From the NCBI GenBank assembly GCA_050084515.1, contig CM114271.1:23374001-23438000 (forward strand): a DNA stretch of 64,000 bases. The letters are read 5' to 3'. This DNA is from Blasia pusilla (taxonomy: Eukaryota). Shown here piece by piece: positions 8,415 through 42,430 of the stretch; position 1 is the first letter of the stretch; each line of letters begins with the position of its first letter. The translations under genes and the position numbers were made by a program. Below the pieces are notes generated by a model, which saw only the letters and a list, made by a program, of their open reading frames with translations, made no database searches and had not been told where the DNA came from.

Positions 8415-8436
8415 AAAGTCTTTCACGGATTTCAGT

Positions 8437-19831: not shown

Positions 19832-19887
19832 AAAAATTCTCATTCTCATTCTCATTCTCAGTCTCCTCCCGTTGGAATCTTCTTGGA

Positions 19888-22800: not shown

Positions 22801-23349
22801 AGGAAATTACACCGCCGAGGTATTCGGGGACCCCGGACCCGTCCCAAATCCGTGATGGAGTTACTCCTCCAAAATCAGTGAATGTTTTATTTCAAAAGCC
22901 CTCCGTTGCTGGAAGTTTGCAACATCCTGTCATTGGGGTGGTTCAACAATATGGGATTCCGGTAATGGAGGTGGATTGCAACCTAAAACGGTGGCATATA
23001 TCTCGGAGCAACCCAGGACGTGGACCCACCTGTAGGGCAGGATCTGATGGCATTAGGAGAGCATGCGGCACTTTCCTAAATAAGAATCTGACAAGGATCG
23101 GACGACCATCGCTGGGTTTTGGGGACTCAAAACCTTTGATCGTTTCACGAGGACGGGGATTAATTGAAGTACTTCTTACGCCCAAATGAATCTTGCGCTT
23201 TCGAAGTCTTATCCGCCGCCATAGGAGCTCCGAGAATACCCCCACGATTTGGCCCATCGCCGCAGGCACGAACTGCACTCAAGACGAAGTGGACAATCTT
23301 ACAAGTGCCGGTTTCAGACTCGTAGACGGGGGAAGTTTGGAGCATGTTC
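19888..23349 (+). pseudogene. Mutator-like (MULE) DDE transposase, copy B (3'-truncated; intron 21900-22337)
   Basis: Cys/His DNA-binding module (CVGALECRSPACPY..CPHC..CPA..HVGSHTHP, GCM/WRKY-like). Catalytic D in VSFD (21369), D in MADNA (21570), DAFHW at the C/DxxH position. After splicing, NTSGAESVHSSW supplies the E (22386), matching the MULE TNNxxESxH pattern. Confidence 0.8.
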
Positions 23350-24025
23350 AGGTCAGGGTCATTCATCACTGGCCGAGGATTTGGATTGTAGGATCCGAGG
23401 TCAAGGATGTTTTTGGGAGATGCCGCAAGTAGTACGACACTTGCAAGAGAGTCAAACATGTTCTCCAGCGTACATTTTGGAGAACGTGCCATTGTTGGGA
23501 GACACTCGTGCACGTGTGATGACGAGTGTGTATTAGGTGAGGTCTTGGTTGGGACTTGCTGTGTTGCTGGATGCAACGAGAGTTGGATCACGTGCCCATC
23601 GTCCTCGACTGTGGTGGACAAACCTGATACCATCAAAGGTACTGAGTCGAGCATATGATGGAGTCCAGAGAGCACCACATCTCAGGGCGTCAATCTTAGG
23701 TGGTGACGCGGGATGATAGACCACCGTTGGTGATGGCAAATAGGGTGGGGGAGTTGAGGGCAACCTTACCCAGGTTGGTGAGCTTCCCAGCATCCCATGC
23801 CTTTTGTCAGGGAGGGCCATGCATGATTTGGGATGAGGTGACCTGAGCATTAGAGGAGCCTATAGCAGATGAGCACGAGCGCGTCATGGGGTTCGCTACG
23901 GGTACTACGGCGGTGCCAAGGATGGCTGAGGCATCCCGGAGACAGGTGTTGGGGTAGGCGATGGACCTCAACTATCTCACATGGATAGTCAACCTAGGTA
24001 TGGCTGAGCAGAGACGGATGCAAGT
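23350..24025 (+). pseudogene. C5 cytosine DNA methyltransferase domain (DNMT3-like), N-terminally truncated, belonging to a Gypsy pol region
   Basis: In correct order: QGHS..GRGFGL*DPRSRMFWEM (end of motif IV, motif V), YILENV (VI, 23480), GSRAHRPRLWWTNL (VIII, 23585-23626), EHERVMGFATGTT (IX, ~23872), RRQVLG*AMD (X, ~23938). Confidence 0.85.
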
Positions 24026-24113
24026 GTAATCCATGCCATCACGTCCACAAGTTGGACCATTGCCTACAAGGTGTGTACATGCATTGGCTATGGGCGAGAC
24101 GAGGAGAGATAGG

Positions 24114-25221
24114 TGTGATACCCACAATTTTGTAATCTTGAAGAATAAATCTTTTTATTCAACGAAGACTCTTGTATATTATGATTTTGATTTTGATTAT
24201 TTATTATTATGAAGAAGAATAAGTGAATCACCAAGTTCCGAAGACAAGGCAGAGAGATGAAGATCAAGGATTTTCCTTAGAGGAGAATCAAAAAAAGAAG
24301 TATTTTCCTTGAAGCTCTTAAGCCCAGCTTAGCAAAGCTTAGCAAAGTCTAACGAAGCTCAAAGCTCTATACACTCAACATGATTGAAGAAGGAAATTTT
24401 GAAAGCTCAACATGATTGAGATTTGAAACGACACATAGTTTAAACAATGAGACTAGGAAAGGGTGCGACCCTTTGTATCAAATTGGTAGTTAGAATAGTT
24501 TTGTACCATGGATTCATAGGGATCGTAGGAAAAGCTAAGTGAACCATAGATCTAGGTAGTTACAGATATTGAAGAGACACCCCTTCATCAAGAACGCCGG
24601 ATCATAGAAACGATCCTACTCGTCAAGAATATTTAAGAAACAGAGAGAAGCTATTATCATCATTCGCTCATGAAGTCCTTATCTTTGAGGAATGGTCCGA
24701 GCAAGAGAGTTGTACCCTCTGAGCTTGTAGATACTTTGAAGTCTTCCAATTCTTGATGGAGTAGTAAAGCATTCATTCATTCATTCTGATGTGCGATGCT
24801 TATGTCTGAATATTTTTTGGGTGCCGAGTGAAGAGTGAATCAGGCGAACCTTTCTCATCAATGGAATAATCAAATATAAAGTTGTATGAAATTTGTTTGA
24901 CAGAGAGTAACCTACCCCGACGGATTGAGTTCCGAAAGTAGGAGAAGCCAGCTTTATTCTTGAGGTCTCTGTGAGGTTCCGAGATGATGAGAGAACAAAT
25001 TGCCTGAACGTCCTTTAAACTCCACTCGAGAGAATTGAAGAAGAAAATATAGGTACTAAGAAGGATCGGAAGCTGATACTGGAATATTACATTTGAATTA
25101 CATAACCAATTACACTTTTACAACATAATCATCACTTTATACTCTCTTTTCATCCAACAATGATCCTCTTGGGGATCGAACTCTACAATTGACTGTAAAT
25201 AAGAAACACTTACACATTACA
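24114..25221 (+). repeat. 5' LTR
   Basis: TG...CA. Nearly identical to 33634-34813 except for length variation in an AAGC/CGAAGC-rich tract. Confidence 0.95.
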
Positions 25222-25238
25222 TATAGTCGAAGACTTTT

Positions 25239-25258
25239 TGGCGCCGCTGCCGGGGATC
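25239..25258 (+). other. Primer binding site complementary to tRNA-Asp 3' end (TGGCGCCGCTGCCGGGGATC)
   Basis: One mismatch to the TGGCGCCGTTGCCGGGGATC PBS known from Athila-type elements. Lies 17 nt downstream of the LTR end. Confidence 0.8.
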
Positions 25259-25713
25259 ATATCCTTGGCTGAGAAGGGAGAGAAAGATCCATGGGGAAGC
25301 ACGGAACGGAGAAAGAAGCTTCGCTCCTAGACAACCCACATTCTAATTCTTACTAAAGACCATCGGCTAGCTCTAGCGACCCCCGTAAGACAATGTATGC
25401 TTGAAGATAACAATACAGTTGCTGCATTGGTGCTAGAGAAGATAGGCCAACTAATTAGAATGGTCAAAGAACCGGTCGCCGAACGGTGCTTCGCCCATGG
25501 ACGATAGTTGTACTTGGTGAAAACCGGTACTTTGTCTATGGGAGAAAACTGGCAGGAAGCGTAGGAGCACCAGGCACCCTCCTGTAGATGTAAAAAGAAT
25601 CAGTAGTTAACCTCCATCCATGGACCCTTACCCTATCGCCACCGTGGGGGTGATCGCGAGTTGCCAAATCCCCCAAGAGGCTTATGGAAGGCTCTCCGCC
25701 CTCTTCGCGAGCA

Positions 25714-28700
25714 ATGAGCCAATCGGGCGAGTAGGCAGAGAGAATAAAGAACCGGCTTGAAACCCCTGGTTTTTGTCTCGAGTCTTCGTCCTCGTCCGAA
25801 GGCGAAGACCAAGAAGAAAGAAAGGGACAAATTTCCCACTACGTCCCCTGCTTGTTCGCAGTCGGACGAAGAGTCGTCCTGGGACCCCTTTGGAGAGTCA
25901 GGGAGCGAGGAGCCGATCAGAGCACCTCGGGCGGCACCCTTACCTCCTCCCTCTCGAGCATCAAGCCCGGGAGCCAGCAAGAGAGCAGTGCCCATGGCCA
26001 ACACTAGAAAAAATTTGCTAAGGTACCCCACCTTTGCTGGAGGCCGACGAGACGATGTGGATAACTTTGTTCTTGAATTCACCCATGTCGCAAGAGCCAA
26101 TGGGGAAGGGGCAGAGGAGGATTTGTTACGAAGTCTTTCCAGGCCTGCTCAAGAAGCGAGCAAGCCAGTGGTACGAAGGTCTCGGAGCAGAAGTCACGGA
26201 AATCTGGAAAAGGGTCTTGGAATCCTTCCTACACGAGTTCCGCGACTTGGAGTTCGAGGACAGGCTTCTTACAAAGCTTCGCGACCTGAAGCGAAGAAAG
26301 AAGGAAACTCTCCGGGAATATACCCAACGGTTCCGGAGCCTTGTGAATAAGCTAGAACACACGACTACCTCTCAATTGGTAGATTGGTTCGTGTCTGGCT
26401 TGTCCAAAGAAATGGATCGGTATTGCCGGAGAGGCCAACGGGATTCCCTAGAGGCAGTCATAGCCTCTGCTGAGGCGTACAAAGCTTCAGAAAAGTCCCG
26501 CCGAACACGAAGACGGCGTCACCAACGAAGAGGGGCGTCGCAGACTAGTGCTTCGTCCGAAGACGAAACGTCCTCCACCGACACGGAGTCCTCTACAGAG
26601 GATTCGTCCTCGGACTTGGAGCAGGAGGTAAAAGCTAAAAGGAAAGGGAAGAGCAGGCGTCATCGCTCCCCCAAGCACCAGACTAAAACCCGACCAAGTA
26701 CCAAGCGTCGTCCTCAGCGGTCGGAAAGTCCGGTAAGAGGGACGGCAAGGAAGGCCGGCAAGTCGGCCATGGAGGAACTCAGTAAACAAATGGCTGAGTT
26801 GAAGGTACATCTGGCGGCCCAAAAGGACCCCAGAAGACGACCCGGGCTGATGAGGCCCAACGTTTGGTGTAGTAGTTGTGGAACCCAGGGGCATACTGTA
26901 CAATAATGCCCTGCGGTGGGTCCAGGAAGAGGCCCCTATTGAAGAAGGATGGTATGAACCAGAACAGTGGGAAGGGTGCTATGCCGTGCAAGCGGTGCCA
27001 CCCCCAAACCCTGGAAGAAGCTGGATCACGCGGTATGTACCTCCGGAATACGGGGAACAGAGACCCCTGAGACAGATTATGGGTGCGGCGGCCTTCACGC
27101 CACCCATCAAGAGAAATTATTGTTATAACTGCGGCGCAGCAGACCACTGGGCCAATAATTGCCCAAACCCGGGTTAAGCGACGGTGGGACTCAATCCCTT
27201 ATGCGGGAACTGCAAGAAGGGCGGGCACACTGCCGTGGAATGCCCGGAGCCTAAGGTCCCACGTTTGTTGGTCAGGTATGTAAATACTCCAGCGGCTCAA
27301 CCAGAGCCCAAGAACGATGTAAATGTACAACTGGTCCGGGTGGAAGAAGTAGTGTCCCCAAGACCAAAGCGAGTCACCATCAGCGAGGAAGACTCGACCC
27401 AAGGGGCCAACGAAGAATCATCAGACTGGCCCAAAGAATTTCAAGAAACAGTGTTGGCGGTCACCACGAGATCAAAGAGTCAGACCGTAGGGACCCCAAA
27501 GGTAAAGAAGGGTGCTTCGTTTTCGCGCGAAGCTCGGGAGCCCAAGAACAAAGCGGTGAACACCTTACGTGCCGGAAAGGCCATCCTCAAAGGCGATGTG
27601 GACCCGGCCTTTGACCGAAGTCATTCGAAATACTTCCATCAGGATGTGGAGGACCAGGTCCGTGCTCAAGTGCGGGAGGCCCAAGAACCAGAGGGGAAAC
27701 AGACCCCAGAAAAGGCAAAGGCCAACCCAAGTACGACAGTCCAAGCCATGGCGACATCACCACTGGTCCTAGAAGCGTACAATTTACTGAGGGACTTGGC
27801 GTCAACCCCGGCCAACATAACCCTGCTGCAGTTGCTAATGGATAACCCAGTATACGGAAAAATCCTGCAGCAGTGGAAAATCAGCCGCAAAAGACCCAGG
27901 AAGGCAGCGAAGCAGCTACCAGTGGTGGACCTGTTCCGTATCAAAGTCGAGGACTTGGGAGCCCCCGAAGTGGAGGTGGAGATTGAGGGCCATACTATTA
28001 AGAAGGTCCCCATTGATTCCGGAAGCGGAATCAATATTATGACAGAGCACACAGCTCGGGCCCTAGGGTACACGGTGTACGAGCCCACAGACAAGTACTT
28101 GCGGTTTGTGGATCAATCCCGGAAGAGACCCCTCGGACAGCTCACGCAAATTCCGACCATGCTCGGGGGGGTGTTGTTTATGTTGGACTACTTAGTCTTA
28201 CAGCCCATGACCGCGACGGGCTATCCTTTGCTCATCGGAAGACCCTGGCTGTATGGCGCGAGAGTGACTACAGATTGGAAAAGGCGACGGTTCACATTCC
28301 AGGCGCCGAATCAGGACTCGAAGCGGCTCATCAAGTTGTCGTGGAAATCTCGACCACCCCAAGGAGAGACGCCACCGACTGACGACGGCTATACGTCAGA
28401 TCAAGACAACACCACCGCTACCGAGTCCTCGTCCAATGTATATTATTTAGAATGTTATGAAATAGATGAGCAGGCAATACCCTCCAAGCCAAGGTCGACT
28501 CGAGAGGAAGAGAAGCTAGGTCATAGCACCTTCCGTTTATCAAAACATGGTTCGGGAGCAGGACTATGTCCATGTCAATATTGCAGATCAAAAAAATCTC
28601 TACGCCTTTCGGCGGATTTGTCTCCTACCACACTTATAAAATATAAAAGACTACTGTTTGAGTATTTGGATGTCTTTGCATACTCTATGGATGAAATGAG

Positions 28701-31356
28701 AGGCATTCCCGCACAATATGGTGAACACCGAATTGATCTTAAAGAAGGCGCGGTCCCGGTGCGAATGCGACAATATCGACTGAACCCAAAGTACTCATTG
28801 TTAGTCAAGGATGAGATCGATCAGCGTCTCGAGGCAGGAATAATCTATCCGGTGTTAAGCAGCGAGTGGGTGTCGCCCATCGTAATTGTGCCTAAAAACA
28901 AACGGGCAAAACCGAGTGTGCCAGGACTATCGGAAATTAAATGCGCCACCTTAAAAGACCACCATCCTCTACCTTTCACCGACAGTATTTTGGATAAAGT
29001 GGCCGGGCACGAGCGTTATACCTTCTTAGACGGGTATTCGGGGTACAACCAGGTATCCATAAGAGAAAAGGATCGTCCCCTCACAACGTTCACGACGGAC
29101 TAGGGAACTTTCGCATATCGCGTAATGCCTTTTGGGTTGTGCAATGCCCTGCCTACTTTCCAACGGATGATGATCTCCATCTTCCAGGAGTATCTTCGGA
29201 AGTTCGTCGAAATCTTTTAGACGATTTTTGTATCTTTAGCACGGAGGCGAACATCTTGAAAAGTTAGAGTTAACACAGACGTCGCCGCAAAAGTGCATTT
29301 GTCCCTTCATCCGAACAAATCCTATATCGCTATGAAACAAGGAATTTTGCTGGGACACCGAGTGTCGGCGCAAGGGAATTGAGGTCGACAAGGCGACAAG
29401 GCCAAGGTGGATATTATCGTCGCATTGGAACCACCCACTAATCTCCGGAATTGAGAGGATTCTTGGGACATGTCAGGTATTATCGACTGTTCATTAAAGA
29501 TCACGCGGTAAAAGCAGGGCGCTCTTACTGCATTACTTAGAAGACCACCGAATGGGAGTGGACACCAACGCGTGCCAAGTGGCATTTGACACCTTAAAAG
29601 ACGATTGCAAAAGGCTCTTGTATTTCCGGTCCCCGATTGGACCAAACCCTTCCACGTGTATGTAGACACATCCTCATTTGCCATTGAGTAGTGCTCAGCC
29701 AATTGGATGAGCACAAACATGATTTTCCAATTTGCTACGCCGGCCGACAACTATCGGCGGCAGAGCAGAAATATACAACCACCGAACGAGAGGCGTTAGG
29801 CATGGTCTTCTCGTGTAAAAAGTTCGACACTATTTATTAGGGTACGAATTTTTCTTTCATGTGGATCATTTTGCACTTTCGGACCTTTAATGGTGAAAGC
29901 CGACTGGGGACGCATTGCACGATGGATCTTGTTGCTACAAGAATTCACATTCGATGTGGTGACCCGTGCGGCAAGGTGCATACCAATGCCGATTTTCTTT
30001 CCCGTTGAGGATGACAAACGCGACCTCACCCAATCATCGATGATACCTTTCCCGATGAAGATCTGTTCGGATAATGAGGAACGGTTGAGCCGATCGTTGT
30101 ATGCGGATATTCTCGCGTTTTCTAATGACTCGCGACTTCGCCCGATGACGGAAGCACGCGCAGTTTTTTACATCGGATAGGCCCTTATGAGCTCTGGTCA
30201 AGGGTCTTATTCAAATTAGGTGCTGATGAAGAGCATCGAAGATGCTTGGAAGCTGAAGAGGTTCCCCAAGTCATCAGAGCTCTGCATATGGCTGATTCCG
30301 GTGGACACTATGCGGTAAAAAATACCGTGAAGAAAATTTTGGCCGCACGATATTGGTGGCCGACTAAGTACAAAGACGAGGTAATTTTATTCGAGTTGTG
30401 ATGCTGTCAAAAAGGTGTCGACCCACGGCGACTCACGCGGTGGCCTTTGGTCCCCATCATGCCCCTAGCTCCTTTTGAAAAATGGGGCATTGACTTCGTA
30501 GGCCCTATCTCCCCGGCCACTCGCCAAACCCGGCGGAAGTATATTCTTATCGCCACGGACTATTGTTCTAAGATGGTTGAAGCAGTAGCCACGCGGAAAG
30601 ATGACAGTGAAATAGTGGCTAAGTTTTTATACGAGATGATTATCACGCGTTATGGCTGTCCGTTGGAACTAGTCAGTGATCGGAGGACGACTTCCGAACC
30701 AGACTATTGAGTCTCTCACTTCCCACTTTCTCATTAAGCATCGGAAAACCACTCCCTACAACCCAAAAGCCAACGGGTTGACGGAAAAATCGAACGGCCT
30801 CATTTGCCGAATATTGAATCGATTAACGGTAACCTATTCCTATGATTGGGACACAAAAATTGCCCCAGCATTATGGGCGTACCGAACAGCTGAGAAGGTG
30901 ACGACAAACTACACCCCGTTCTTCCTGACTTATGGCGTACATCCCTTAACACCTATTCAATGGGCGTTGCCCACTTATCGGGTATTGAGGGCACAAGAAC
31001 GGAAGTCATGCGGACGGTTATCGAACACGTGAATGAGACCCTAGTGGAGTTGGAAGAAGCACGATGCTCGCGTTACGACGGACAGACAGCCCAAGTGCAA
31101 AAGAACGTAAGAAACGTTATAATCGACATCTCCGCCACAATCTATCGATGTTGGCGACTTAGTGATATTGTATGATAACCGGCGACTAAAGTTCCCCGGA
31201 AAATTAAAATTAAATTGGATGGGACCCTACCGGGTATTGGCCATCTATGATAATGGATCCCTCCAATTAGAAACCTTACAGGGAGAATCCCTACCCACAC
31301 GAGTCAATGGAATGCATGTGCGCCGGTATTATGAGCCCGAACCTGAGGATGAGTGA
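25714..31356 (+). pseudogene. gag-pol: gag-pol polyprotein (frameshifted)
   Basis: Gag core (FPGLLKKRASQWY, ETLREYTQRF), three CCHC knuckles, protease PIDSGSGINIM, RT (EWVSPIVIVPK, FLDGYSGYNQV), RNase H (RIARWILLLQEF), integrase (KWGIDFVGP, TTPYNPKANGLTE, WMGPY). Start position approximate. Confidence 0.9.
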
Positions 31357-31701
31357 AACATGAGGAAGGGGTAGGCAAACGCCCCGTGCTTCGCAAAGTA
31401 GCGGCACGCAGGTTCAAAGACATGATTAGCCAGCGGCAAATAGCGGCAAGTTCAGACATACAAAGTTCGTGGAAAATATACCGAAGTTCAAAATATACCG
31501 TGATCCGCGAAGTAGCGAAGCACCGAGGTTCCAGACAGCCCATGCTTCGCGAAGCAGCGAAGCGCAGGAAGATAGGAAGGGGAAGCGTGGCGAAGCCGCG
31601 AAGCGCCCACTTTCTTGTTACTGACCAGCGCCCGCGACCGACCAAGAACGACAAGGGGAGCGGACTATAAAGCGATCTGGCGTACCCAAGCGGGTATTTT
31701 C

Positions 31702-33594
31702 ATGGACGGATCACCACAAAGTTGCGTGAGATGTGCCAAAGCGCGGTGTCCATCGAGATCGACCTAGCAACATGCCTCGCGAAGACGCCACACCCATTCT
31801 GCAGCGGCGATGCCAACGGTCAAGTGCCACCGGAGTGATCGAGGCTGGAGGAGCGATCGTTGGAAACTTTCTTTCAAGCCAATGGACTCTAACATCCGGA
31901 GAACTCTGGCGAGCTTCGCTCGGCGTCTGCAGTCGCCAAATTTGAAAGAAGGGTCTTCGGTATCGAGCTCAGCCCCAACACCGACGGGCGGACGATCGAG
32001 AGCAACTTATTCGCTCCGGCCGCGCTTTTGAGTACGAAAGTATGACACGGAGTTGCTCGTCAAACATGAAGATCTTTTAGCACTCGGCTGTGTCACGTCT
32101 GAGCGCTGGCGAGAACGGCTACAAGGCTTCGTCACTCTCTCCGCCGTCTTTGGTCAGTTTTGCAAACATCTTGATGACCTGTTTTATCCCGCTCGTTCTT
32201 ACTATCTTGACAAACAAGATCTTGAAGATGTGCTACATCATCTGGAATCAACACCTTGACCCCGAAGCCCCAGGAGTCGACTTTGCTGCTTTTGTGGACG
32301 GGCACGTACGAGGAATGGTGGACGTGCTTCATCCAAGCACGAAGTCCTTCCTCTCTCCTTTCTTGATTCACCTTTATATTCACAAGCAGGAATTAACCGC
32401 AGAGGAGGCGTTAGATTGGTCACAAGTGACCCCGTCCGACTACCACGGAAAGGCGCAACTAGTACCGGGGTAGGTAGCCGCGAAGTCACCCCGCCCTCCA
32501 AGCACCTCAAGAACATCCGCACACCCGGCTTTGAAGAAAGACGGTTATCAACGAAATGCCTTGGCCAAAGCGAGGCGGGTCAATTTTGAATCACCGGACC
32601 CTTAACATGTCATGCAGAGGATTCCGACGAGACCCCGCGGGCAAGGGATCATCAACCTACGCTTCGTCTCATGTCGCAGACGGCAGACGACATGATGTGG
32701 TTCTTGCAATTGGCAGTTCCCGTCATGAACCAACTCCAGCGGTTCTTCACCTCGAGGATACGGCGTCCGTGGACGATTATTTAGAAGGCTTGCACGACCT
32801 CAACTGCAGAGCCCAAGCCCGTCGCACGGACCACGAATCTGGTCGAGAGCAGCGTAAACGACCGCAAATACGGAATCGGGAACTCGAAGAAACGCACCAC
32901 GCCGCCAAAACTCAGAGCGACTTGGTCCGAAGTGTCGACAAAGCACCGGAACGCACGCCAATGGGAAAGTTTGGCGCTTAAAATGAATGTGGGGCGGATC
33001 GTTAGTTTCGCAGATCAAGGAGGCCGCACCTCATTGACAAGTATCGACATCGATCAAAGAGTTCACACCGAATTCAAGAAGTTGTCGATCCAGCATGCCG
33101 AGTCTTCGAAGCTGCTTCAAGAACATCAAGAAGCTAACAAAGACTTAGTGGCACAGTGGGCGGAGGCTACCGGGAGGATCGCAGTCTTGGAGGCAGAGCA
33201 GAAGCTACTCAACGAAGCCCAGATGGATCCGGACGATGTCAAAGAGCTGGTCGACGAAGCAAGCAAGAACTTCGAAGAACAGATGAACGAGGAAATCGAC
33301 TACATCAACAAACATTGGAAGCGCCAATTCGACAATCATACTAAGTCTCTTCCAGAAGTAGTACCCACTCTTTCCATTACTCTTGAAGAATTACCAACAT
33401 TCACTCCATCTGATGTCTTAGTCCAGAATGAAGTCCTCGGGAGTCACTTAGTTGTTAACAAGTCGCGAGAAAGAATGCGCAATCATACCCCTAACATTAT
33501 CAACAAACCTTCTACGATTCATGGCCGTTTGGTGCCTACCCCTGAATTTGATAGTTTAGACGACACATTTATGGAGATAGCAGATACATCATGA
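31702..33594 (+). pseudogene. Additional sense-strand ORF between pol and 3' LTR (unknown function, C-terminal coiled coil)
   Basis: Chain of overlapping + ORFs (32053, 32090, 32556, 32932) ending 40 bp before the 3' LTR. TATAAA at 31666. No recognisable env signature. Confidence 0.55.
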
Positions 33595-33620
33595 AGTGTT
33601 CGCCGGGGCGGCTCACATTT

Positions 33621-33633
33621 GAGGGAGGGGGTA
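33621..33633 (+). other. Polypurine tract
   Basis: GAGGGAGGGGGTA immediately before the 3' LTR. Confidence 0.85.
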
Positions 33634-34813
33634 TGTGATACCCACAATTTTGTAATCTTGAAGAATATATCTTTTTATTCAACGAAGACTCTTGTATATT
33701 ATGATTTTGATTATGATTATTTATTATTATGAAGAAGAATAAGTGAATCACCAAGTTCCGAAGACAAGGCAGAGAGATGAAGATCAAGGATTTGCCTTAG
33801 AGGAGAATCAAAAGCTGTAAAGAAGTATAAAGGATCAAAGCGAAGCTCAGCGAAGCCCAGCGAAGCCTAGCGAAGCTTAACAAAGTCTAACGAAGCTCAA
33901 CGAAGCTCTATACACGAAGCACGAAGAGCGAAGCACGAAGCACGAAGAAGAAGGAAGCACTTCGTCCTCCGGAAAATTAGCGCAACGAAGCTCAACATGA
34001 TTGAGATTCGAAACGACACATAGTTTAAACAATGAGACTAGGAAAGGGTGCGACCCTTTGTATCAAATTGGTAGTTAGAACAGTTTTGTACCGTGGATTC
34101 ATAGGGATCGTAGGAAAAGCTAAGAGAACCATAGATCTAGGTAGTTATAGATATTGAAGAGACACCCCCTTCATCAAGAACGCTTCGGATCATAGAAACG
34201 ATCCTACTCTCAAGAATATTTAAGAAACAGGACAGAAGCTATTATCATCATTCGCTCATGAAGTCCTTATGCTGTAGGAATGGTCCGAGCAAGAGAGTTG
34301 TACCCTCTCGAGCTTGTAGATACTTTGAAGTCTTCCAATTCTTGATGGAGTAGTAAAGCATTCATTCATTCATTCTGATGTGCGATGCTTATGTCTGAAT
34401 ATTCTTTTTGGGTCTGCCGAGTGAAGAGTGAATCAGGCGAACCTTTCTCATCAATGGAATAATCAAATATAAAGTTGTATGAAATTTGTTTGACAGAGAG
34501 TAACCTACCCCGACGGATTGAGTTCCGAAAGTAGGAGAAGCCAGCTTTATTCTTGAGGTCTCTGTGAGGTTCCGAGATGATGAGAGAACAAATTGCCTGA
34601 ACGTCCTTTAAACTCCACTCGAGAGAATTGAAGAAGAAAACATATGTACTAAGAAGGATCGGAAGCTGATACTGGAATATTACATTTGAATTACATAACC
34701 AATTACACTTTTACAACATAATCATCACTTTATACTCTCTTTTCATCCAACAATGATCCTTTGGGGATCGAACTCTACAATTGACTGTAAATAAGAAACA
34801 CTTAGACATTACA
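33634..34813 (+). repeat. 3' LTR
   Basis: TG...CA, followed by TSD ATAGG. Confidence 0.95.
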
Positions 34814-35199
34814 ATAGGCACCCATGGACTTCTTGGGACGTCGTTCGAGTAGAGAGTGTGAAGGCGGCCAAAGTAGCACATGTTCATTTTTTGGATGCAG
34901 AGCATGGTATAGGAGGTCAGAGTGGAGTGGTTATTGTAGAGGGGGCTAGGGTTGCTACATAGCAACCAAAGCCGAACGTTGCGTCCCCTCCAAGTGAGGT
35001 CATGATGGAGACATGGGAGCCTATGATAGGTCTCAAGTTGATAGGAGGAGAGCGCGGCGAGTTCATAGGTTTTTGAGAGGGCATGTCAGTTGTTTTGCCT
35101 TTAGTATAAGAGACTTGGGTAAGTTGAAGAGTCTCGGGATACGCATTGAGTTGGCTAGTCCATCCATCATTCTTTATATCCTTCTTTAGGCATGTATTT

Positions 35200-37990
35200 T
35201 GAGATGGATAGCCTTGATAACTCCACAAAGGACTTGTTGGAGGCAGGACTTGTGGAGTTATCACATGGGGAGTATACATCTCCCACAATCATGCCCGCAA
35301 AGAAGGATATATATGGCAATTGGATGGATAGGCGGATGTGTGGAGATTACCGTCCTATCAACCGACAGACGAGGTGAGATCGGTATGCCATGCCTACTCG
35401 TGAGGAGATCTTTGATGCGGTAGGGCATGCAAAGATCTTCAGTACTTTAGATCTCCGTGATGGCTATCATCAGCTTCCTATCAGGTTGGAGGATAGGGAG
35501 AAGACAACATTCTGGGGGATAGATCGGTTTGGGAGAGATTGATACACGATGTTACATAGATGATATTCTTATCTTCACTTCCACGGTTGAGGAGCATGAG
35601 CAACATCTGGAGGAGGTGTTTCGGCGATTGTAGTTACATGGAGTGAAGTTATATCCAAGCAAGTGCAGATTCTTTCAAGAGCAGATTGAGTACTTGGGAC
35701 ACACCATATACCCAAGTGGGTTAGGCGTTCAGTAGACGAAGGTAGAGGCTATTGCATAGATTCTACGCCCTACAGATGTGAGTCGAGTCCAAGCATTTCT
35801 TGGACTGGAAAACTTCTATGGACAGTATGTCAAGGGTTTTAGTGCGATCGTAAAGTCTTTGACCTTGTTGACGAGACTTGATCAGTTTTGGTTGTGGGGA
35901 GATGATCAGGAGCAAGCATTTCAGGAGCTCAAGGATAGGTTGACGTTCTCACCCATTTTACAGAGACCGGTTAGGGGTCGCCCATTCCAGTTACAGATGA
36001 ATTCAAGCATGTTGGGTCTATGAGCAGTGCTTACTCAGAGGGATGACGAGGAGAGGGAGTTCTTTGTGGCTTACGCGAGCCGATCGAACAACCTTGCAGA
36101 GGCAAAGTACAACTACTACGAGGGAGGGTGCTTGGCTGCAGTATGGGTCGTGGCACATTTGAGGTGCTATTTATTCGGCAATCCTTTCACACTCATCACT
36201 GATCATCAACCGTTGAGGTGGTTGATGGAGTCCGACAAGCTTACGGGAAAACTCGCCAGGTGGGCTCTATTACTACAAGAGTATGAGTTTGAGGTGGTTC
36301 ATAGGCTAGGCCGGCTGAACCAATATGTGGATGGGTTGAGTCTTAACCCATGTCCGAGTTAGAGAGATGATAGAGGAGCTCGATGGCACGGAGAGAGTGA
36401 TGAGGAGATGGTGCTCGATTGGCATGCATCTGCCTATCTTTGTTGGTTGACTATGGTAGGTCAGCCACAAGTGATGACTCTAGTGGTGGGGTTGGATGAT
36501 GAGTCTTTGGATCCGGAGGTCAATGAGGAGGCGACAAGTGGTCGTGATATCCATGACGACGTGGAGGTTGTGGAGTTCTTGCGCATTGGCGTCATAGCGA
36601 GCACACTTAGTGCTAGGGAGCGCGATCGGATCCTCTAGCGAGCTAGGAGGTTCAGGTGGGAGGGGACTCACATCTTGCGGGTATGGGGAGATGGTAGGAT
36701 ACGAGTGGCACCTCATCCTTCCCAACGAGCACGTGTAGTGCAACATGCCCATGAGGAGTTGGGACATTTTGGAGTGAAGCGTACTTAGAGCTTACTCCAT
36801 ATTCAGTATTGGTGGCGCGGCATGCATATTGGGGTACAGAAGTTTGTGGCGAGATGTATGGTATATGACAGAGTGCAAGCATCCTTCAATGCTCCCACTC
36901 TGTAGTTACATCCTTTTCCGATCATGGATTTAGGTTATCGATGTAGTTTAGACTTTGCGGGACCTTTGCCATTGACGAGGCATCATCATAAGTACGTGTT
37001 GGTCATGGTGAAGCATTTCTCCAAGTGGATAGAGTTGGTGGCACTACTGGACAAGGCGAGCAAGGAAACAACTTATGTGTTTCTAGATCGTGTGCTTAGT
37101 CACTTTGGTGCATCAGTGGAGGTGTTGACTGACCAGGGTATCGAGTTCAAGGGAGAGTTTCAGGCCTTGTGTGATCAGGCGCTGATAGATCACCGCACCA
37201 CGTCGAGAGATCATCTTGAGGCAAAAGGTTGGCGGAGAGAGTAGTACATACGGTGAAGAGAGGATTGCGCAAGTATGGCTTGTAGTGAGGAGAGTTGAGG
37301 GAGTGGCACCTACAGTTGCCATGGTTGGCTATGGGTTATCGCTTTAGTCGGTAGGCATCCTTGGCGTCATTTTCACCATACTTTTTGCTCTTTGGGAGAG
37401 AGCCAGATTTACTTGCAGCTATTTGACGTGACATGGCGGAGGTGTTAGATCTTGATGATCCAAATGTAAGGGTACAAGCATGTTCTCAAAGGGCGGAGAT
37501 TTTTCGTAGAGTTATGCCTATGGCCTTTGGGAACTTAGCTATTGCTCAGCATAAAGATACATTGAGGTACGCAACTATTCGTGGAGGAGGTTATCGTCCA
37601 GGGATTAGGAGGTTTCATCCTACAGATGACGTGTATTTACAGCAGGCGGCACCCACGACGCTAGATGTCACTGCAGGGCGCACGATCCCACATGTGTGCG
37701 AAGTATTACCGACATGAGTCCTCATGTTGGAGGGACGGGATGGTATGGTTTGGAAGGATCATGTGCACAATTGTGCGCCATGTCATCTTCCGAACGTAGA
37801 CGAGATAGTGGATCCAAGCTTGGCAGTGGTACCTACAGGCCTGAGGTGTGTGTTGTGTGGATCTGCGAGGGGTGCAGCCACCATGTTGGTATGTGATGGT
37901 TGTTCTCGAGGGTGGCATATGTCATGTCTGACCCCCCCTCTTGATGTAGTTCTCATGAGACAATGGATTTTTCTGAGATGTGTATGGGGT
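35200..37990 (+). pseudogene. pol: pol remnant (RT, RNase H, integrase, PHD finger) of the DNMT-bearing Gypsy
   Basis: RRMCGDYRPIN, STLDLRDGYHQ, YIDDILIF (RT); YASRSNN..YEGGCLA..TDHQPL (RH); LDFAGPLP, TDQGIEF (IN); CVLC..CDGCSRGWHMSC..W (PHD, ~37847-37982). Co-linear with 5729-7790. Confidence 0.9.
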
Positions 37991-38066
37991 AGTAGGTCAT
38001 GTTAGAGAGATGTGATATTTTCTATCTGGAGTTGGGGGGATCCAACTGCCAACTAGGGGGCCGGTT

Positions 38067-38201
38067 GTGTGATCTCTATGTATATGTATGAGTTGATTTC
38101 TGTACATGTGTGGATCTACCCGTGTGTGGGGAAGATCGGTGTTGTGTGGTGTAGATGTGACCAGCAATGTATGTTGTGTAGCAATATGTATGCGCACGAC
38201 A
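38067..38201 (+). repeat. Short terminal repeat / putative 3' LTR of DNMT-Gypsy
   Basis: Follows the PPT. Its last 40 nt (CAGCAATGTATGTTGT..CGCACGACA) match the end of 7962-8065. MULE sequence resumes immediately after. Confidence 0.55.
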
Positions 38202-41104
38202 TAGTTCAAAATCTTCTGCAGCCTCTAGGTTTCTTTCCTCTGGAACAGGCTCAATCTTCTTTAGCTCCGCTTGTAGACCCACGATCATGGACTTCCCGAG
38301 GAGGCGCAACGCGTCCCAAAATGACCATTCCCCTAGCCAATTGGAGATCACTAGATCTGAAACTTGTGGAGGATGATGTACCACCCGCTTTTGGGCCACA
38401 TTGCCCTCGAGACTGATTTTCATCAGTCGAATTCGCCTAAACTTGGATATCCCAACAGCGCAAACCTATGCACGTGGTCCACAGACACTTTCTCTCCGAT
38501 CCGACCGTGTGGATCTTCGTCTCTCTTCTGCTGGCGCTTGATTATTGCCTTGAGCTCCTTGTAAAACTCTGGGCCAAGTTTGGGGTTGAGAATTGCAATG
38601 TAACGTTGCATCTTGCTTGCAGTGTACTTTGTAGCCACAGATACGGCAGCCTGAATAAACTTTGCACGTTTTGACGCGGACACGTTCTCCCTTCGCTCTA
38701 GTTCCAATGAATCACTCTTCTTGGCGGTCTGGATCTTGGACCAACATAGGATTGTGATGCTGCATCTTGGGAAATGAAGGTATTTGCCTTGGTCTTGTTT
38801 TTTATTTGAGCTCCCTTCGCCAACATCTCATTTAACAGATCGTCGCCCAGGAATCCCTTGTACTCTGCCAGGTGCGTCATAAGCACCTTCTTGATCATGT
38901 TGCAATCTTGGATCCACTGTTGAGTGACGTTCCCCTCGGATAAAATTCTGCAAATCCAAACACAAGGTAAGAATACTGCAACCTATCGGGTTCCTGCAAC
39001 CCGTCGGACTCCGAAGGGTCGCAATTTTGTCAACCCATCGGGGTCCAAATGTTAGCACAGAGATAAGTGTTGCAACCCGTCGGACTCGACGAGTTGCAAT
39101 TATGTCAACCCATTAGGGTCCAAATCGTAACACATAGATAAATGTTGCAACCCGTCGGAGTCCGACGGGTTGCAACACTTATTGCAACACTCTTGAAATT
39201 TTTAGAGAAAATTACAACCCATCGGAGTCTAACGAGTTGCACTCTCTATGCATGACTCTCTGGTCCAACCGATCGGTTCCTCTTATTCCTTTGGTTCCAA
39301 CCCGTTAAACTCCGACGGGTTGTAGAATGACTTCCATTCGGAGATAGGTTTTTTGGATTAAAACTGCCCATATCAACCCGTCGGAGTCTGACGGGTTGCG
39401 CAATGGCCTTGTTAAGCTAGAATTGGATGCCTAAAAGCAAGTTGTTGGACTCTGACCATGTACCTTGGGGGGGAAATGCAACCCGTCGGAGTCCAACGAG
39501 TTGCTTTTGGCCAAAAGTATCCAAAAAATAGAAGACAATCCAACAACTCGTCAGACTCCGACGAGTTGCTTTTAGACGTCCGATGATTTGTTACCCCTCA
39601 TTGTGCAACTTGTTGGAGTCTAACGGATTGAAGAAAAACTAAATCATGCAGTCATTATTCCACCCGTCGATATTCGACTGGTTTCAATATCCCGAATTAA
39701 TCTGGTGTGCTTGGCCACTAGGCAACCCGTCAGACTCCAACGGTTTGCTTGACTATGACCTTGACCACAAACAGGATGGTGGCAAGAGATTCAAATCATT
39801 CATGCCCATCTTTAAGCTTTCCAATTATGCAACCCGTCAGACTCCAACGAGTTGAAGTAATCAAACTTAAGAATGAGGAAACTTACGTATTCATCGCATG
39901 CATTGCCATTTCCACCGTTCCCATATGATGAGGAAATGGATGGAGCACAACTGCCCTCACACAAAAATGTGTCTCCAATGAATTTGGGCGCTCCTCTGCA
40001 AACTACATCCACGCCATATAGCTATGGTTCCCATCCCATATGAAGAAGTAGAAGTTCCGAATCCAGCTAAATTGGGTTCCTTCAATCGCTCTTCTAAACT
40101 TATGATCTCTCATCATTCAGAATGTATGATGAGAGATCATACATTCTGAATGACTCCAAGTCCTCTTCCGTCACCAGAGCTTGGGTTCCATGTTCATCGT
40201 AAGGCTGAACATAGAATAGAGGGAAGTTGTCGATGTAGGATGCAGTCGCTGCGGACTGTTTGAGATTTGCAATGTCCTCCTCCGACTGAATTTTGTGGAT
40301 ATACTCCATTGTCAGCAAATGACAGAGTGGAATTTTTGGGGTATTTTGGCCCTCCATCAGTGCCATCTGCTTAACAACCTGCCACAATGGGGACAAAGTC
40401 AATAAAATATTGTGTTTTGCCAATGAATTGCATAATGAGCCTTCACATAACCCTATTTTTTCTTACCCGCTCAAAGATTGCGTCGATGTCTAGGCCGGCC
40501 AAGTGCTCTGGAACACGAGCTGGCAAGTCCACGGGAAACTCATCGACCAGATAAAGGTCGATTTCTTCCACCGGGCTCAAAGACGATGAAGATTCTTCTC
40601 CTGCTTCTTTAGAGATGTCCACCATCTCCATACATGCTGTCCTCATGACCTCATCATCCGTCACTTGAACTTCGGCCGTTTCTCAGCCGATTTTAGATTC
40701 ATGGTGTCCCTAGACCTCATCGATGACATTTCCTACATCTCAACACTTTGTGTTGGACGGGCAGAGCTTTCTTCAATGGCGATTGCTTTTTCTCTTTGAG
40801 CTTTTGACAATTCTGCTCTCCTGACGGAAGCATCAAGACGCTTCTTCTCACGTTGCTCGTCCGCAACTCTTTTCTTCAAGGCCTTCGATGCCTCAACCTC
40901 AGCGTTTTGCTTTGCGAGCTCCTCCAGAGCACGTTTTGCTAGCACCTCCTGCATGTGCATATGTGCTTCCCTTTCCCACTCCTCCATTTCTTGTTGCCTT
41001 TTCTCATTTGCCAAACGAGGACGTGGAGATGGTGACGCAAGAGTCTTAATGGACTTGGGAGTGATGCTCCCTACTTTGGTTGCTTGTGTTTTCTTTCTCA
41101 TCAT
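38202..41104 (-). pseudogene. 5' half of ParB/MTase cargo gene, copy D
   Basis: MMRKKTQATK.., PKIPLCHL..YIDNFPLFYVQPYD.., FFIWDGNHSYMAW (WDGNHS at 40038-40021), ASKMQRYIAILNPKLGPEFYKELK. Same intron positions as copy B. Confidence 0.75.
38975..39855. repeat. Palindrome array in cargo-gene intron 2 (copy D)
   Basis: Includes perfect TGTTGCAACCCGTCGGA-G-TCCGACGGGTTGCAACA at 39143-39177. Confidence 0.9.
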
Positions 41105-41499
41105 GGTGCACGTTGGGTCAGTTCTTCCTCCTCGACAGTCTCATATGCTCCTGTGCATAACAGATCCCTCAAAGCTTTGATGGAGTCCCTAAACCCAACT
41201 CTTGAAGCGTTTCATGATGAAGCGCCGTGACCCTCGAGCGGATGGGCTTGCCGAAATCTAACCCTCAAAGCATCGGGTGTTGGATTGTCGTAACCTTCCA
41301 GTAAAGGGGTGAATGTAATCGACTTTGGCAGCGGAAAGGTAACCTCAGCTACTGCGAGGAAGAGCACATGAAATCGCAAAATGAAAAACGGAAAGGACCA
41401 AAATCTCAGCCTTTTATACTTTCAAGCCGTTGAGCTGACGGTTGGGTCGTACAAATGGCGACGTGTCGGCCGTTATGGAACTTTGCACGTAGGAACCGG

Positions 41500-42430
41500 G
41501 CAACCCGTCGGAGACCAAAAAGTTGCACGCTTCCCTCATCCTCAGGTAACAAGGAGAGGTACTTAGGAAACCCGTCAGAGACCGATGGGTTGCACGCCTC
41601 CCTCGTTTTGGGGTAACAAGGCAACCCGTTGGAGGCCGACGGGTTGCACGCTTCTCTTGTCTTGGGGTAACCAAGCAAGGTACCCAAAAAACCTGTCCGA
41701 GACGGATAGGTTGCACGCTTCCCTCGTCCTCGGGTAACAAGGCGAAGTACCCAGGCAACCTGTCGGAGACCGACGGGTTCCACGCTTCCCTTGTCTTGGG
41801 GAAACAAGGCGAGGTACTCGCGCAACCCGTCGGAGATTGACGTGTTGCAAGGTTCCCTCATCTTGGGGTAACAAGGTGAGATACCCGGGCAACCCCTCGG
41901 AAACCAATGAGTTACACGCTTCCCTCGTCTTGCGGTAACAAGGCGAGATACCCAGGCAACCCGTCTTAGATCGACAGGTTGCATGCTTCCCTCGTCCTCG
42001 GGAACAAGGCGACAAAGCATAGTCCTGAGGCAATCCATTGACCTCCGATGGGCTACAAAGTCTACCCTGGGTTGGACACTTCCCACCATACGGCAAAATT
42101 GCCCTCACGATTTGCATGGTTCATTGGACAAGAGAAATCAACGTGAGATCCCCCCGCAACTCGGTTACCTCAAAAAGGGAAAGCAAGGTGAGGTGCCTTT
42201 TCAACCCATCGCAGTCCCCAACGGATTGCCGTAGGAAATCCATGCGAGGTCTCGTGGATCCCGACTCCAATTAGACAGGTCACACAGGCTACTACTAACA
42301 ACTGCGTTCAACCCAACGGACTCCGACAGGTTGCAAGTTGCACTCAGAAGATGATACTATGTGGCTTTGCAACCCACGTGTCTTAGTCCCAAAATTTGCA
42401 ACCCGTCGGACTCCGACAGGTTGCAATAGG
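41500..42430. repeat. ~60-bp palindrome-containing minisatellite in the intergenic spacer (copy D)
   Basis: Unit approximately GCAACCCGTCGGAGACCGACGGGTTGCACGCTTCCCTCGTCTTGGGGTAACAAGGCGAGGTACCCAG. Confidence 0.85.

Follow-up and report, generated by a model that had tools for sequence, protein, structure and literature searches.

A decayed Ty3/Gypsy fragment in a liverwort genome from a retrotransposon family that pairs a DNMT3-like methyltransferase with a PHD finger

The window (the whole stretch of DNA that was analysed, 64,000 nucleotides) holds three copies of one Ty3/Gypsy family, designated G0, G1 and G3. G1 (23350-38201) is very probably an old, dead internal fragment of this family, whose members carry a DNMT3-like writer and a PHD finger. 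The features are as follows.

4284-8065, + strand: G0, a second, diverged family copy (profile positions 38-517, E 4e-97)
15980-23349, + strand: X1, an unrelated repeat adjoining the cut 5' end of G1, broken at 23349
23350-24025, + strand: DNMT3-like C5 methyltransferase remnant of G1 (motif IV after Pro-Cys, then VI, VIII, IX and X)
24026-24113, + strand: DNMT-RT linker of G1, first part (the profile match reaches 24119)
24114-34813, + strand: nested, unrelated Ty3/Gypsy LTR retrotransposon (gag, PR-RT, integrase), starting with TG and ending with CA at 34813
34819-35300, + strand: DNMT-RT linker of G1, remainder (tblastn aligns P0136 residues 702-750 to 35031-35177)
35303-35706, + strand: reverse transcriptase (RT) of G1, by tblastn
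35760-36362, + strand: RNase H of G1 (Pfam RT_RNaseH_2 at 35760-36020, E 9.5e-8; RT_RNaseH at 36024-36359, E 7e-27)
36546-37717, + strand: integrase of G1, with zinc-binding, catalytic core and C-terminal parts (Pfam rve at 36906-37241, E 9.5e-12; tblastn)
37718-38002, + strand: PHD finger, C-terminal end of the G1 polyprotein (PF00628, E 1.2e-8, 35.2 bits, cut-off 24)
38003-38201, + strand: 3' non-coding tail of G1 (likeness to G0 stops at 38201; 38162-38201 matches 8026-8065)
38248-46131, + strand: X2, a second copy of repeat X, 65-88% alike to X1, 46 bp past the G1 tail
62833-63897, + strand: gag region of the third family copy, G3 (E 3.5e-58 over profile positions 5-386)

The original prediction had placed C5 methyltransferase motifs IV (in part), VI, VIII, IX and X across stops and frameshifts at 23350-24025, and we located all of them. 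The remnant opens with Q-G-H, right behind the Pro-Cys of motif IV, and continues with ILENV (VI), SRAHRPRLWWTNL (VIII), ERVMGF (IX) and LGxAMDLN (X). When positions 23000-24200 were searched by tblastn with P0136, an intact Marchantia protein, 23354-23683 matched at 64% identity and 23688-23987 at 58% (joint E 2e-64). A profile built from 12 intact gag-PR-DNMT proteins matched the six-frame translation at 23408-23686 (E 1.3e-45) and 23685-24119 (E 1.8e-58). The reading is interrupted by four in-frame stops (23534-6, 23697-9, 23844-6 and 23955-7) and three frame breaks, of which one, at 23683/23688, also involves a small deletion and the other two, near 23368 and 23410, compensate each other. 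At E<1e-5 the remnant was matched by 41 of the 149 family proteins compared, and its identity to polyprotein-borne DNMTs was 55-65%. Judged from these alignments, the likeness of the remnant to the predicted family DNMT is far beyond chance. We observed no PF00145 match by hmmscan in six stop-free pieces or in two in-frame read-throughs with X at the stops, nor any match between the remnant and PDB chains; its identity as a DNMT therefore rests on the intact relatives. The PF00145 search that had been suggested thus failed on the remnant and succeeded on those relatives.

The nested element is bounded by copies of an ATAGG TSD at 24109-24113 (left) and 34814-34818 (right). Its LTRs (24114-25226 and 33634-34813, the likeness running to 34817) are 90.5% alike over 1187 bp, its Pfam matches include Retrotrans_gag at 26022-26903 (E 9.6e-13) and rve at 30402-30707 (E 1.5e-8), and it shares just 23-26% identity with G-family proteins. 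By tblastn, P0136 is colinear with G1 across this insert, residues 495-694 aligning to 23411-23987 and residues 702 onward to 35031-36680. Among reads of the same species label, counted at a likeness of at least 85% to the window sequence, 568 WGS loose ends past 24113 run on as the sequence at 34819 (29 of 30 letters), and 24113 is likewise joined straight to the 34819 sequence in 6+6 RNA reads that stem from other copies. The nested element inserted later than G1, splitting the DNMT remnant from the RT-RNase H-integrase-PHD part (34819-38201). The TSD, the LTRs, the colinearity of P0136 and the joining DNA reads all bear out the proposal that excision at ATAGG brings the DNMT beside RT.

RNase H, integrase and PHD finger were recovered downstream by Pfam and RT by tblastn, in the arrangement that had been predicted. 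The RT bounds were guided by the Pfam RVT_1 positions in P0176; about 34 residues are gone between 35518 and 35544, where P0176 residues 647-680 are unmatched. The integrase is interrupted by stops and shifts frame at 37229, and damage outside the DNMT comprises 14 further stops and the RT deletion. The left edge of G1 lies inside DNMT motif IV, directly past the catalytic Cys, and its right edge ~200 bp beyond the PHD finger. DNMT motif I and the catalytic Pro-Cys are missing, as are LTRs, gag and protease, and for want of these last three the copy is inactive. We found no LTR pair, PBS or PPT for G1, G0 or G3 in the window, so their status as LTR retrotransposons is assigned from protein order alone.

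G0 consists of gag with zinc knuckles (4284-5715), RNase H from 5720, integrase and a PHD finger at about 7650-7760 (Pfam RNase H, E 1.9e-34; Integrase_H2C2, E 1.1e-14), an internal deletion having removed PR-DNMT-RT. Its 5' end is truncated by repeat Y at 4282, and it is 70% identical to G1 over 2016 bp of nucleotide sequence. The window stops short of the PR/DNMT slot of G3. A 538-aa ORF in X1 (20568-22184) had no Pfam match, and X2 extends beyond 46131, where an ORF shows weak likeness to SWIM (E 0.0048, below cut-off). G1 is flanked on the left by X1, whose right end is broken, and on the right by X2, whose left end is broken, a setting that might be an assembly artefact in which repeats were joined. 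Each of the two junctions (23349/23350, 38201-38248) falls within high-copy repeats, just 97 of 11,996 reads are at least 99% alike to the window, and the read tables give no proof of reads spanning 23349/23350. However, depth in the bin 23332-23385 is not zero (376+388), and X1 and X2 are too dissimilar to be a collapsed duplicate. We consider such a join improbable, and it would leave untouched the DNMT-linker-RT continuity, which is backed by other copies. Past 23349, 732 reads of other X copies run on in the same way as X2.

The complete anatomy of the family was read from intact relatives. In P0216, Pfam places zf-CCHC at 515, protease at 787-878, DNMT at 969-1266, RT at 1415-1569 and RNase H at 1632-1760; in P0192, it places DNMT from 82, RT from 550, then RNase H, integrase and a PHD finger at 1470-1513 of 1516 residues. 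The family polyprotein, as carried in one frame by intact public proteins, has the order gag/zinc knuckle-protease-DNMT3-like C5 methyltransferase-RT-RNase H-integrase-PHD finger. Among the 120 matches listed, the closest RNase H relatives included 8 with precomputed PF00145 and 35 with PF00628, and a DNMT was present before RT in all seven relatives whose frame extends at least 550 residues upstream of YxDD. The DNMT region of P0136 matched 32 proteins (16 Marchantia, 1 Calypogeia, 1 Sphagnum, 1 Closterium and 13 others), and with P0248 as query phmmer gave, at E<=1e-30, 281 cluster representatives, many of them 1000-3400 aa long. The family is thus shown to be multi-copy in liverworts and to occur also in a moss and in Closterium, grouped with Gypsy relatives of Klebsormidium. 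On DNMT trees, which contained no host DNMT3 or DRM sequence, the remnant fell in a bryophyte clade (12 rows in FastTree, SH-like 100; 9 rows in IQ-TREE quick, SH-aLRT 99). The host is identified as a liverwort, a land plant, by an apyrase gene at 53603-55819 that shares 75% identity with Marchantia, 74% with Riccia and 65% with Calypogeia. The anticipated Gypsy family of a land-plant genome, with DNMT before RT and PHD after integrase, is therefore supported by P0216, P0192 and the seven far-reaching relatives, none of which lacks a DNMT before RT.

These relatives also bear on whether the DNMT-like segment is instead a host DNMT3 pseudogene that adjoins a Gypsy fragment by chance. Gag, PR and LTR are absent from G1, an unrelated repeat cuts the 5' side of its DNMT, and continuity within this window is seen on the RT side only. 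Nevertheless, one-frame DNMT-RT fusions colinear with G1 are known in Marchantia, Closterium and other proteins, and the linker past motif X leads into RT as in P0136. DNA reads of other copies join the DNMT end to pre-RT sequence, depth points to many copies, and the identity to polyprotein-borne DNMTs likewise argues against a host gene. A chance neighbour is so improbable that we treat the DNMT as part of the retrotransposon.

The family is high-copy in this genome: WGS depth over the DNMT bins was 489-1178, compared with 29-37 in the least covered bins. Loose ends before 23352 (n = 348) translate to ...I-A-G-W-P-C, so motif IV is whole in other copies, and in the majority of reads the sequence at three of four remnant stops and at both compensating shifts is not that of the window. 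In three RNA runs, 56, 64 and 48 reads matched, mostly at <95% likeness. Those over the DNMT fell almost solely in first-mate-on-minus columns, which means sense RNA if, as we assumed, the library was of the usual stranded type.

The family belongs to a kind described from an alga and now found abundant in a land plant. KnitGypsy-Dnmt3 of Klebsormidium nitens carries an unrearranged DNMT3-type domain within a Ty3/Gypsy Pol (de Mendoza et al. 2018, PMC5890265), and resembles the liverwort family in its streptophyte host, many copies and conserved catalytic residues. In that account Klebsormidium is the only green host named, the main text mentions neither a PHD finger nor Marchantia, and DIRS-like split repeats are reported, whereas no terminal repeats were definable for the liverwort copies (PMC5890265). 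By RNase H, the relatives of the liverwort family include retrotransposon proteins of Klebsormidium (54-64% identity), one of which, P0208, has a PHD finger. The annotated frames of P0175, P0181 and P0208 contain no DNMT segment, and no DNMT-bearing Klebsormidium protein was among the relatives retrieved; kinship with KnitGypsy-Dnmt3 is therefore indirect. SymbioDIRS-Dnmt3 and SymbioLINE-Dnmt of Symbiodinium are likewise retrotransposon-borne C5 methyltransferases, but are described from other classes (tyrosine recombinase DIRS, LINE) in another host kingdom, without integrase-PHD (PMC5890265). EpiLTRs of Cymbomonas and Euglena are LTR retrotransposons with a DNA methyltransferase and a chromatin reader; their DNMT is given as sister to DNMT4 and is accompanied by a chromodomain and a Dam-like adenine methylase, in contrast to the DNMT3-like domain and PHD finger seen here, and in the preprint "streptophytes (Gypsy-DNMT3)" count as a distinct acquisition that was already known (bioRxiv 10.64898/2026.05.21.726589). 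Retrotransposon-encoded PHD fingers were reported in 2005 and are called widespread in eukaryotic retrotransposons; those reports, as cited, lack the coupling to a DNMT found in the liverwort family (PMC6673714). We found no paper reporting Gypsy-DNMT3 in liverworts.

The 12-protein profile matched DNMT3A (E 6e-15), DNMT3C (3.5e-14) and DNMT3B (4e-13) best in the PDB, with weaker matches to M.HaeIII (1e-6), tobacco DRM (7e-5) and DNMT2 (0.04), showing that, by sequence profile, the family DNMT is nearest to DNMT3 among solved structures. Atlas structure look-alikes were also headed by DNMT3A (TM 0.73), a model-based lead only. Conceivably, the DNMT is part of Pol but no working methyltransferase, serving as a structural or DNA-binding pseudo-enzyme and leaving the chromatin function to the PHD finger. 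In a wider set of 143 near-full domains, 80 fit the Pro-Cys pattern and 68 have E-N-V; P0216 has E-C in place of P-C in motif IV; and KnitGypsy-Dnmt3 showed no activity in yeast, from which its authors draw no conclusion (PMC5890265). Against this, the P-C-Q, E-N-V and S-x-A-H-R...W-T-N columns (motifs IV, VI and VIII) are invariant in the 12 bryophyte-type profile proteins, which are 31-94% identical, and motif IV is whole in the 348 read ends from this genome's other copies. The DNMT3-like domains of SymbioDIRS-Dnmt3, moreover, methylate CG in yeast (PMC5890265). We regard a pseudo-enzyme as unlikely.

In intact copies, the DNMT would be produced as part of Pol and may methylate cytosines de novo, either in newly made copies of the element itself or in their surroundings. 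The PHD finger at the C-terminus could link integrase to the tails of histone H3, probably those without methylation at K4, and thereby direct insertion into silent, repeat-rich chromatin. The best solved relatives of the finger are DPF3, PHD1 of KDM5A/B and Lid, PHF21A, KAT6A, ATXR5, AIRE, CHD4 and UHRF1. Most of these PHDs bind H3 with unmethylated K4. The proposed role would match that of the chromodomain in chromoviruses, Ty3/Gypsy elements in which this module behind integrase is thought to steer insertion (Gao et al. 2008, via PMC6673714); both groups have a histone-reader module at the integrase C-terminal end, here a PHD finger by Pfam and not a chromodomain. We offer this mechanism, a Pol-borne DNMT that methylates and a PHD finger that steers integrase, tentatively, as a possibility short of even odds. 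The identity of G1 and the family anatomy, as described above, are very probably correct. The presence of three family copies in 64 kb of repeats could reflect either retention in repeat-rich DNA or targeting.

Positions 23350-24025 hold no single reading frame, and comparison with intact proteins identified this stretch as a C5 cytosine methyltransferase (DNMT) domain of which the rear two thirds remain. When we searched the window by tblastn with P0136, a related Marchantia protein, it aligned at 64% identity over 23354-23683 and at 58% over 23688-23987 (joint E 2e-64), and A1, a profile of 12 intact gag-protease-DNMT relatives, matched 23408-23686 (E 1.3e-45) and 23685-24119 (E 1.8e-58). 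The remnant starts with Q-G-H, where the intact protein reads I-A-G-W-P-C-Q-G-H, and continues with ILENV, SRAHRPRLWWTNL, ERVMGF and LGxAMDLN, which we take to be motifs VI, VIII, IX and X in the usual C5-MTase numbering. Alignment to P0136 and two further family proteins (P0128 and P0216) placed motifs VI (ENV), VIII (RxR), IX and X in the right order. The reading frame is broken by four stops (23534-6, 23697-9, 23844-6 and 23955-7), by a small deletion accompanied by a change of frame at 23683/23688, and by two mutually compensating shifts near 23368 and 23410. The tblastn and A1 matches thus bear out the original prediction that C5-MTase motifs lie here across stops and frameshifts. Motif I (FxGxG, cofactor binding) and the catalytic Pro-Cys of motif IV, both of which were found in relatives, are not in G1 (the Ty3/Gypsy fragment at 23350-38201), and no upstream piece was present within the window; across the entire window, the A1 profile detected no further protease or DNMT piece besides this remnant. 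The expected match to PF00145 was obtained for the intact relatives (26.7-50.2 bits vs. a cut-off of 22) but not for the remnant, for which six stop-free pieces and two read-throughs (X at stops) gave no Pfam match to this family. The first read-through also had no match when searched by phmmer in the PDB.

The remainder of G1 is interrupted by an unrelated Gypsy retrotransposon.

Features of G1 (23350-38201)
23350-24025, DNMT remnant
24114-34813, nested Gypsy element with LTRs at 24114-25226 and 33634-34813, 90.5% alike
35303-35706, RT (tblastn), about 34 residues absent at 35518/35544
35760-36362, RNase H (Pfam E 7e-27 for 36024-36359)
36906-37241, integrase core (rve; Pfam E 9.5e-12)
37718-38002, PHD finger (PF00628; E 1.2e-8, 35.2 bits, cut-off 24), after the integrase

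The nested element begins with TG, ends with CA, and is flanked by ATAGG at 24109-24113 and 34814-34818. It carries its own gag and integrase (Pfam), its Pol is only 23-26% identical to that of the G family, and unlike G1 and the further family copies G0 and G3, it has LTRs and a target site duplication. Residues 595-694 of P0136 aligned by tblastn to 23688-23987 and residues 702-750 to 35031-35177. Excision of the nested element therefore joins the DNMT end to a linker and then RT, the same arrangement as in P0136, and this colinearity across the insert agrees with the prediction that removing the element at ATAGG places the DNMT just upstream of RT. A protease C-terminus at 34750-34815, suggested by three-frame translation, was rejected, as this is the end of the nested element's LTR. 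Tblastn and Pfam recovered the Pol order RT, RNase H, integrase in G1, and the DNMT shares this order as colinear broken frames, not as one open frame. With P0176, another public family protein, as a guide, the region from RT to PHD contains 14 stops, and its frame changes at least three times. The PHD finger stands after the integrase, in the chromodomain place, as had been proposed; no chromodomain was found after the G1 integrase, and Pfam gave PHD-type families alone for the C-terminal frame. We conclude that the observation of a DNMT remnant is confirmed and that G1 is a dead fragment; the locus itself is without function.

No gag or protease of the G family was found near G1 in the A1 profile search, and self-comparison of the window for direct repeats revealed no LTR pair bounding G1, G0 or G3, G1 being cut on both sides. 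On the left, G1 adjoins at 23349 the broken end of X1, a copy of the unrelated repeat X, and on the right a second copy, X2, starts 46 bp past 38201. A reading of X1 and X2 (~7.4 kb each side) as giant LTRs of G1 was rejected because their shared limits only mark the truncation points of X1 (right) and X2 (left), because X2 continues into a SWIM-like frame, and because 732 reads of other X copies run past 23349 as X2 does. Repeat X (15980-23349 and 38248-46616) is high-copy in the whole-genome reads, with a depth of ~1000-1300 at 22900-23330. A 538-aa open frame in X (20568-22184) had no Pfam match, a frame downstream in X2 matched the SWIM zinc finger weakly (E 0.0048), and judged by eye, X may be a Mutator-like transposase. 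Both X copies contain arrays of a 67-bp unit (41433-42004 and 19004-19579); long frames stay open over these arrays on either strand, probably as repeat artefacts.

Two more family copies were located in the window with the A1 profile.

Other family copies in the window
4284-8065, G0, gag with zinc knuckles (A1 profile positions 38-517, E 4e-97)
62833-63897, G3 gag (A1 profile E 3.5e-58); the window ends short of the DNMT slot

An internal deletion in G0 has removed protease, DNMT and RT, and RNase H, integrase and a PHD finger follow; its DNA is 70% identical to that of G1 over 2016 bp. A sensitive blastn search for terminal repeats in the G1 tail, in the G0 tail and upstream of G3 returned just one repeat, a 107-bp direct repeat in the 3' tail of G0 (7959-8065 and 8434-8540, 93%). 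The likeness between G1 and G0 (G1 38162-38201) stops exactly at the end of the 107-bp unit. By analogy, this unit may be part of split terminal repeats as reported for KnitGypsy-Dnmt3, the Klebsormidium Ty3/Gypsy element with a DNMT3 in Pol (de Mendoza et al. 2018, PMC5890265).

Reads with the same species label were aligned to 22900-24500 at ≥85% likeness, with roughly 1% of the whole-genome run sampled. Among 11,996 aligned whole-genome reads, only 97 were ≥99% alike, and summed depth was 489-1178 in the DNMT bins vs. 29-37 in the two bins of 22900-24500 with the lowest coverage; most reads therefore come from other copies. We take the copy number to be dozens to hundreds, a range read without a single-copy yardstick in 22900-24500. 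Translated in the remnant frame, 348 loose ends before 23352 (agreement 0.97) read ...I-A-G-W-P-C, and therefore other copies have the whole of motif IV and G1 is truly cut at this point. Behind 24113, 568 loose ends continue as the sequence at 34819 (29 of 30 letters), so other copies are without the nested insert. Most reads also differ from the window at the three stops listed, of the four in the remnant, and at both compensating shifts, and those breaks are private to G1. In three RNA runs of 10-12 million records each, 56, 64 and 48 reads aligned, and these derive from other copies, since most are <95% alike. RNA reads over the DNMT fell almost only in first-mate-on-minus columns, so the RNA would be sense if, as we assume, the library is of the usual stranded type. 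Six RNA reads in each of two runs joined 24113 to the pre-RT sequence.

Intact relatives place the DNMT within Pol. A search of longer proteins with the RNase H of G0 returned 687 matches, and the following figures refer to the 120 listed. PF00145 (precomputed) occurred together with RT and RNase H in 8 of these 120 (two Marchantia, one Closterium and five others), our own profile detected the DNMT domain in 15, and 35 carried a PHD finger, one of them from Klebsormidium. The DNMT lay upstream of RT in all seven listed relatives with a frame of at least 550 residues upstream of YxDD.

Pfam domains of three intact family proteins, in order
P0216: zinc knuckle (zf-CCHC) 515, protease (Asp_protease_2) 787-878, DNMT 969-1266, RT 1415-1569, RNase H 1632-1760
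P0192: DNMT, RT, RNase H, integrase, PHD finger 1470-1513 of 1516
P0278: zinc knuckle, DNMT, RT, RNase H, integrase

In the intact relatives, the DNMT is in one frame with a Gypsy Pol, and a PHD finger after the integrase was also present in P0192, P0218, P0283 and P0311. The domain order of these proteins supports the proposal of a land-plant Gypsy family with both a DNMT3-like writer and a PHD reader. With the DNMT part of P0136 as query, we retrieved 32 proteins, half of them (16) from Marchantia, single ones from Calypogeia, Sphagnum fallax and Closterium, and 13 others. Of 149 fetched family proteins, 41 matched the remnant at E<1e-5, with 55-65% identity for the best. Searched exhaustively by phmmer, P0248 (Calypogeia) matched 4631 cluster representatives (E≤0.001); 925 of them reached ≤1e-10 and 281 reached ≤1e-30, and many of these have lengths of 1000-3400 residues. 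One of ten clusters looked up was a Scenedesmus 'pol'. The best 150 of the 4631 were all polyprotein-borne, with no host DNMT3/DRM or Klebsormidium DNMT among them, and the word-indexed search likewise returned polyprotein-borne domains only and none of these others. Family proteins appear in public databases as hypothetical proteins of Marchantia, Calypogeia, Sphagnum, Closterium and Scenedesmus.

We compared the A1 profile with the PDB.

A1 profile matches in the PDB
DNMT3A, E 6e-15
DNMT3C, E 3.5e-14
DNMT3B, E 4e-13
M.HaeIII, E 1e-6
tobacco DRM, E 7e-5
M.HhaI, E 9e-5
DRM2, E 0.02
DNMT2, E 0.04

DNMT3A, 3C and 3B came first and all others followed at 1e-6 or worse, this being a ranking of profile matches rather than a tree with host DNMT3, DRM, DNMT1 and CMT. 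The profile alignment paired the family SRAHRPRLWWTNL with AHRARYFWGNL of DNMT3A and the family ERERAMGF with EMERVFGF, which upholds the assignment of AHRxRxxWxNL and ERxxGF as DNMT3-type signatures. Invariant columns across the 12 proteins of A1, which share 31-94% identity, include Pro-Cys-Gln, Glu-Asn-Val and Ser-x-Ala-His-Arg...Trp-Thr-Asn. Among Atlas structure look-alikes of residues 300-650 of P0248, a chordate DNMT3A ranked first (TM 0.73), which we treat as a lead only.

The family proteins occur in two layouts, one with the DNMT before RT (layout A) and one in the order RT, RNase H, DNMT, integrase, PHD (layout B), the latter seen by Pfam in P0218, P0283 and P0311 (Scenedesmus 'pol', 3225 aa). 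DNMT trees were built, without an outgroup or host DNMTs, from 72 of 197 domain-bearing proteins (those near-full with a decidable layout, named ones and a few more) and a row for the remnant. Layout B formed one side of a branch, with an SH-like support of 97 (FastTree, 73 rows) and an SH-aLRT of 97 (IQ-TREE quick, 36 of the 73 rows). The remnant grouped with proteins of Marchantia, Calypogeia and Sphagnum and with three others (clade support 100 in FastTree and 99 in IQ-TREE quick).

Intact copies encode a single polyprotein that runs from protease through a DNMT3-type domain, its catalytic motifs conserved, to RT, RNase H, integrase and, at the end, a PHD finger; copies are numerous and give rise to some RNA. 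The DNMT would carry out de novo cytosine methylation on the new copy or around it, and the integrase would be tethered to H3 tails through the PHD finger. The best solved relatives of the PHD finger are DPF3, Cph2/PHF12, PHD1 of KDM5A/B and Lid, PHF21A, KAT6A, ATXR5, AIRE, CHD4 and UHRF1. Most of these proteins bind H3 when K4 is unmethylated, and such reading would point to silent chromatin. Steering by the PHD finger would then parallel that described for the chromodomain in chromoviruses (PMC6673714). The presence of three family copies amid nested repeats within 64 kb fits targeting by the PHD finger; it fits equally well the survival of copies in repeat-rich DNA. As for element-borne DNMTs, the DIRS-borne DNMT3 of Symbiodinium gave CG methylation in yeast, and the Gypsy-borne DNMT3 of Klebsormidium gave no signal there, a result its authors call inconclusive (PMC5890265).

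KnitGypsy-Dnmt3 is the closest known system to the G family; the link to Klebsormidium is a likeness of RNase H to Klebsormidium retrotransposon proteins and not a comparison of the DNMT domains themselves. The hosts named in the report describing that element are dinoflagellates and the charophyte Klebsormidium; neither a PHD finger nor Marchantia occurs in its main text (PMC5890265). A 2026 preprint (bioRxiv 10.64898/2026.05.21.726589) refers to 'streptophytes (Gypsy-DNMT3)' by citing the same report, and PHD fingers in retrotransposons are already known (PMC6673714). We found no papers on DNMT-bearing Gypsy elements in liverworts, mosses, other land plants or Zygnematophyceae in a search that extended to literature other than subscription journals and supplements. 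What is new here is a land-plant (liverwort) member of Gypsy-DNMT3, the kind itself being known, and this family-level reading is supported.

A cytosine methyltransferase borne by the element inverts the usual picture, in which the host methylates the transposon. Documented so far in dinoflagellates and one charophyte alga, such elements now include a high-copy liverwort family with a PHD finger added. The question thereby moves to land plants with good genetics, as Marchantia is transformable and its methylome is mapped, and bryophyte DNMT gene counts may include element-borne copies. We raise tentatively, as a rather doubtful extension, that Gypsy elements with a DNMT3 writer and a PHD reader are an old green-line lineage persisting into land plants and not a Klebsormidium oddity, here high-copy and transcribed with many copies free of G1's breaks, and with two fixed layouts that each make up one side of the DNMT tree. 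If this were true, DNMT3-like genes counted in bryophyte genomes could be partly element-borne, and if some copies were also active, their DNMT3 could contribute to methylation in bryophytes.

Elsewhere in the window, the repeat Y is present in three copies, at 1-4282 (+), 9102-11347 (-) and 11817-16069 (-), which are 72-89% alike and have a common end point. A Y frame at 1964-2419 gave a sub-threshold match to N6_N4_Mtase (E 0.0025, 18 bits vs. a cut-off of 26.7) and to M.RsrI (E 0.036). This likeness to N6/N4 DNA methylases may be a chance match; if real, a further type of DNA methylase carried by a liverwort repeat would be noteworthy. The only clear host gene noticed in the window marks the host as a liverwort other than M. 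polymorpha: it is an apyrase (GDA1/CD39) at 53603-55819 (+), one open frame of 738 codons whose product shares 75% identity with Marchantia, 74% with two Riccia species and 65% with Calypogeia.
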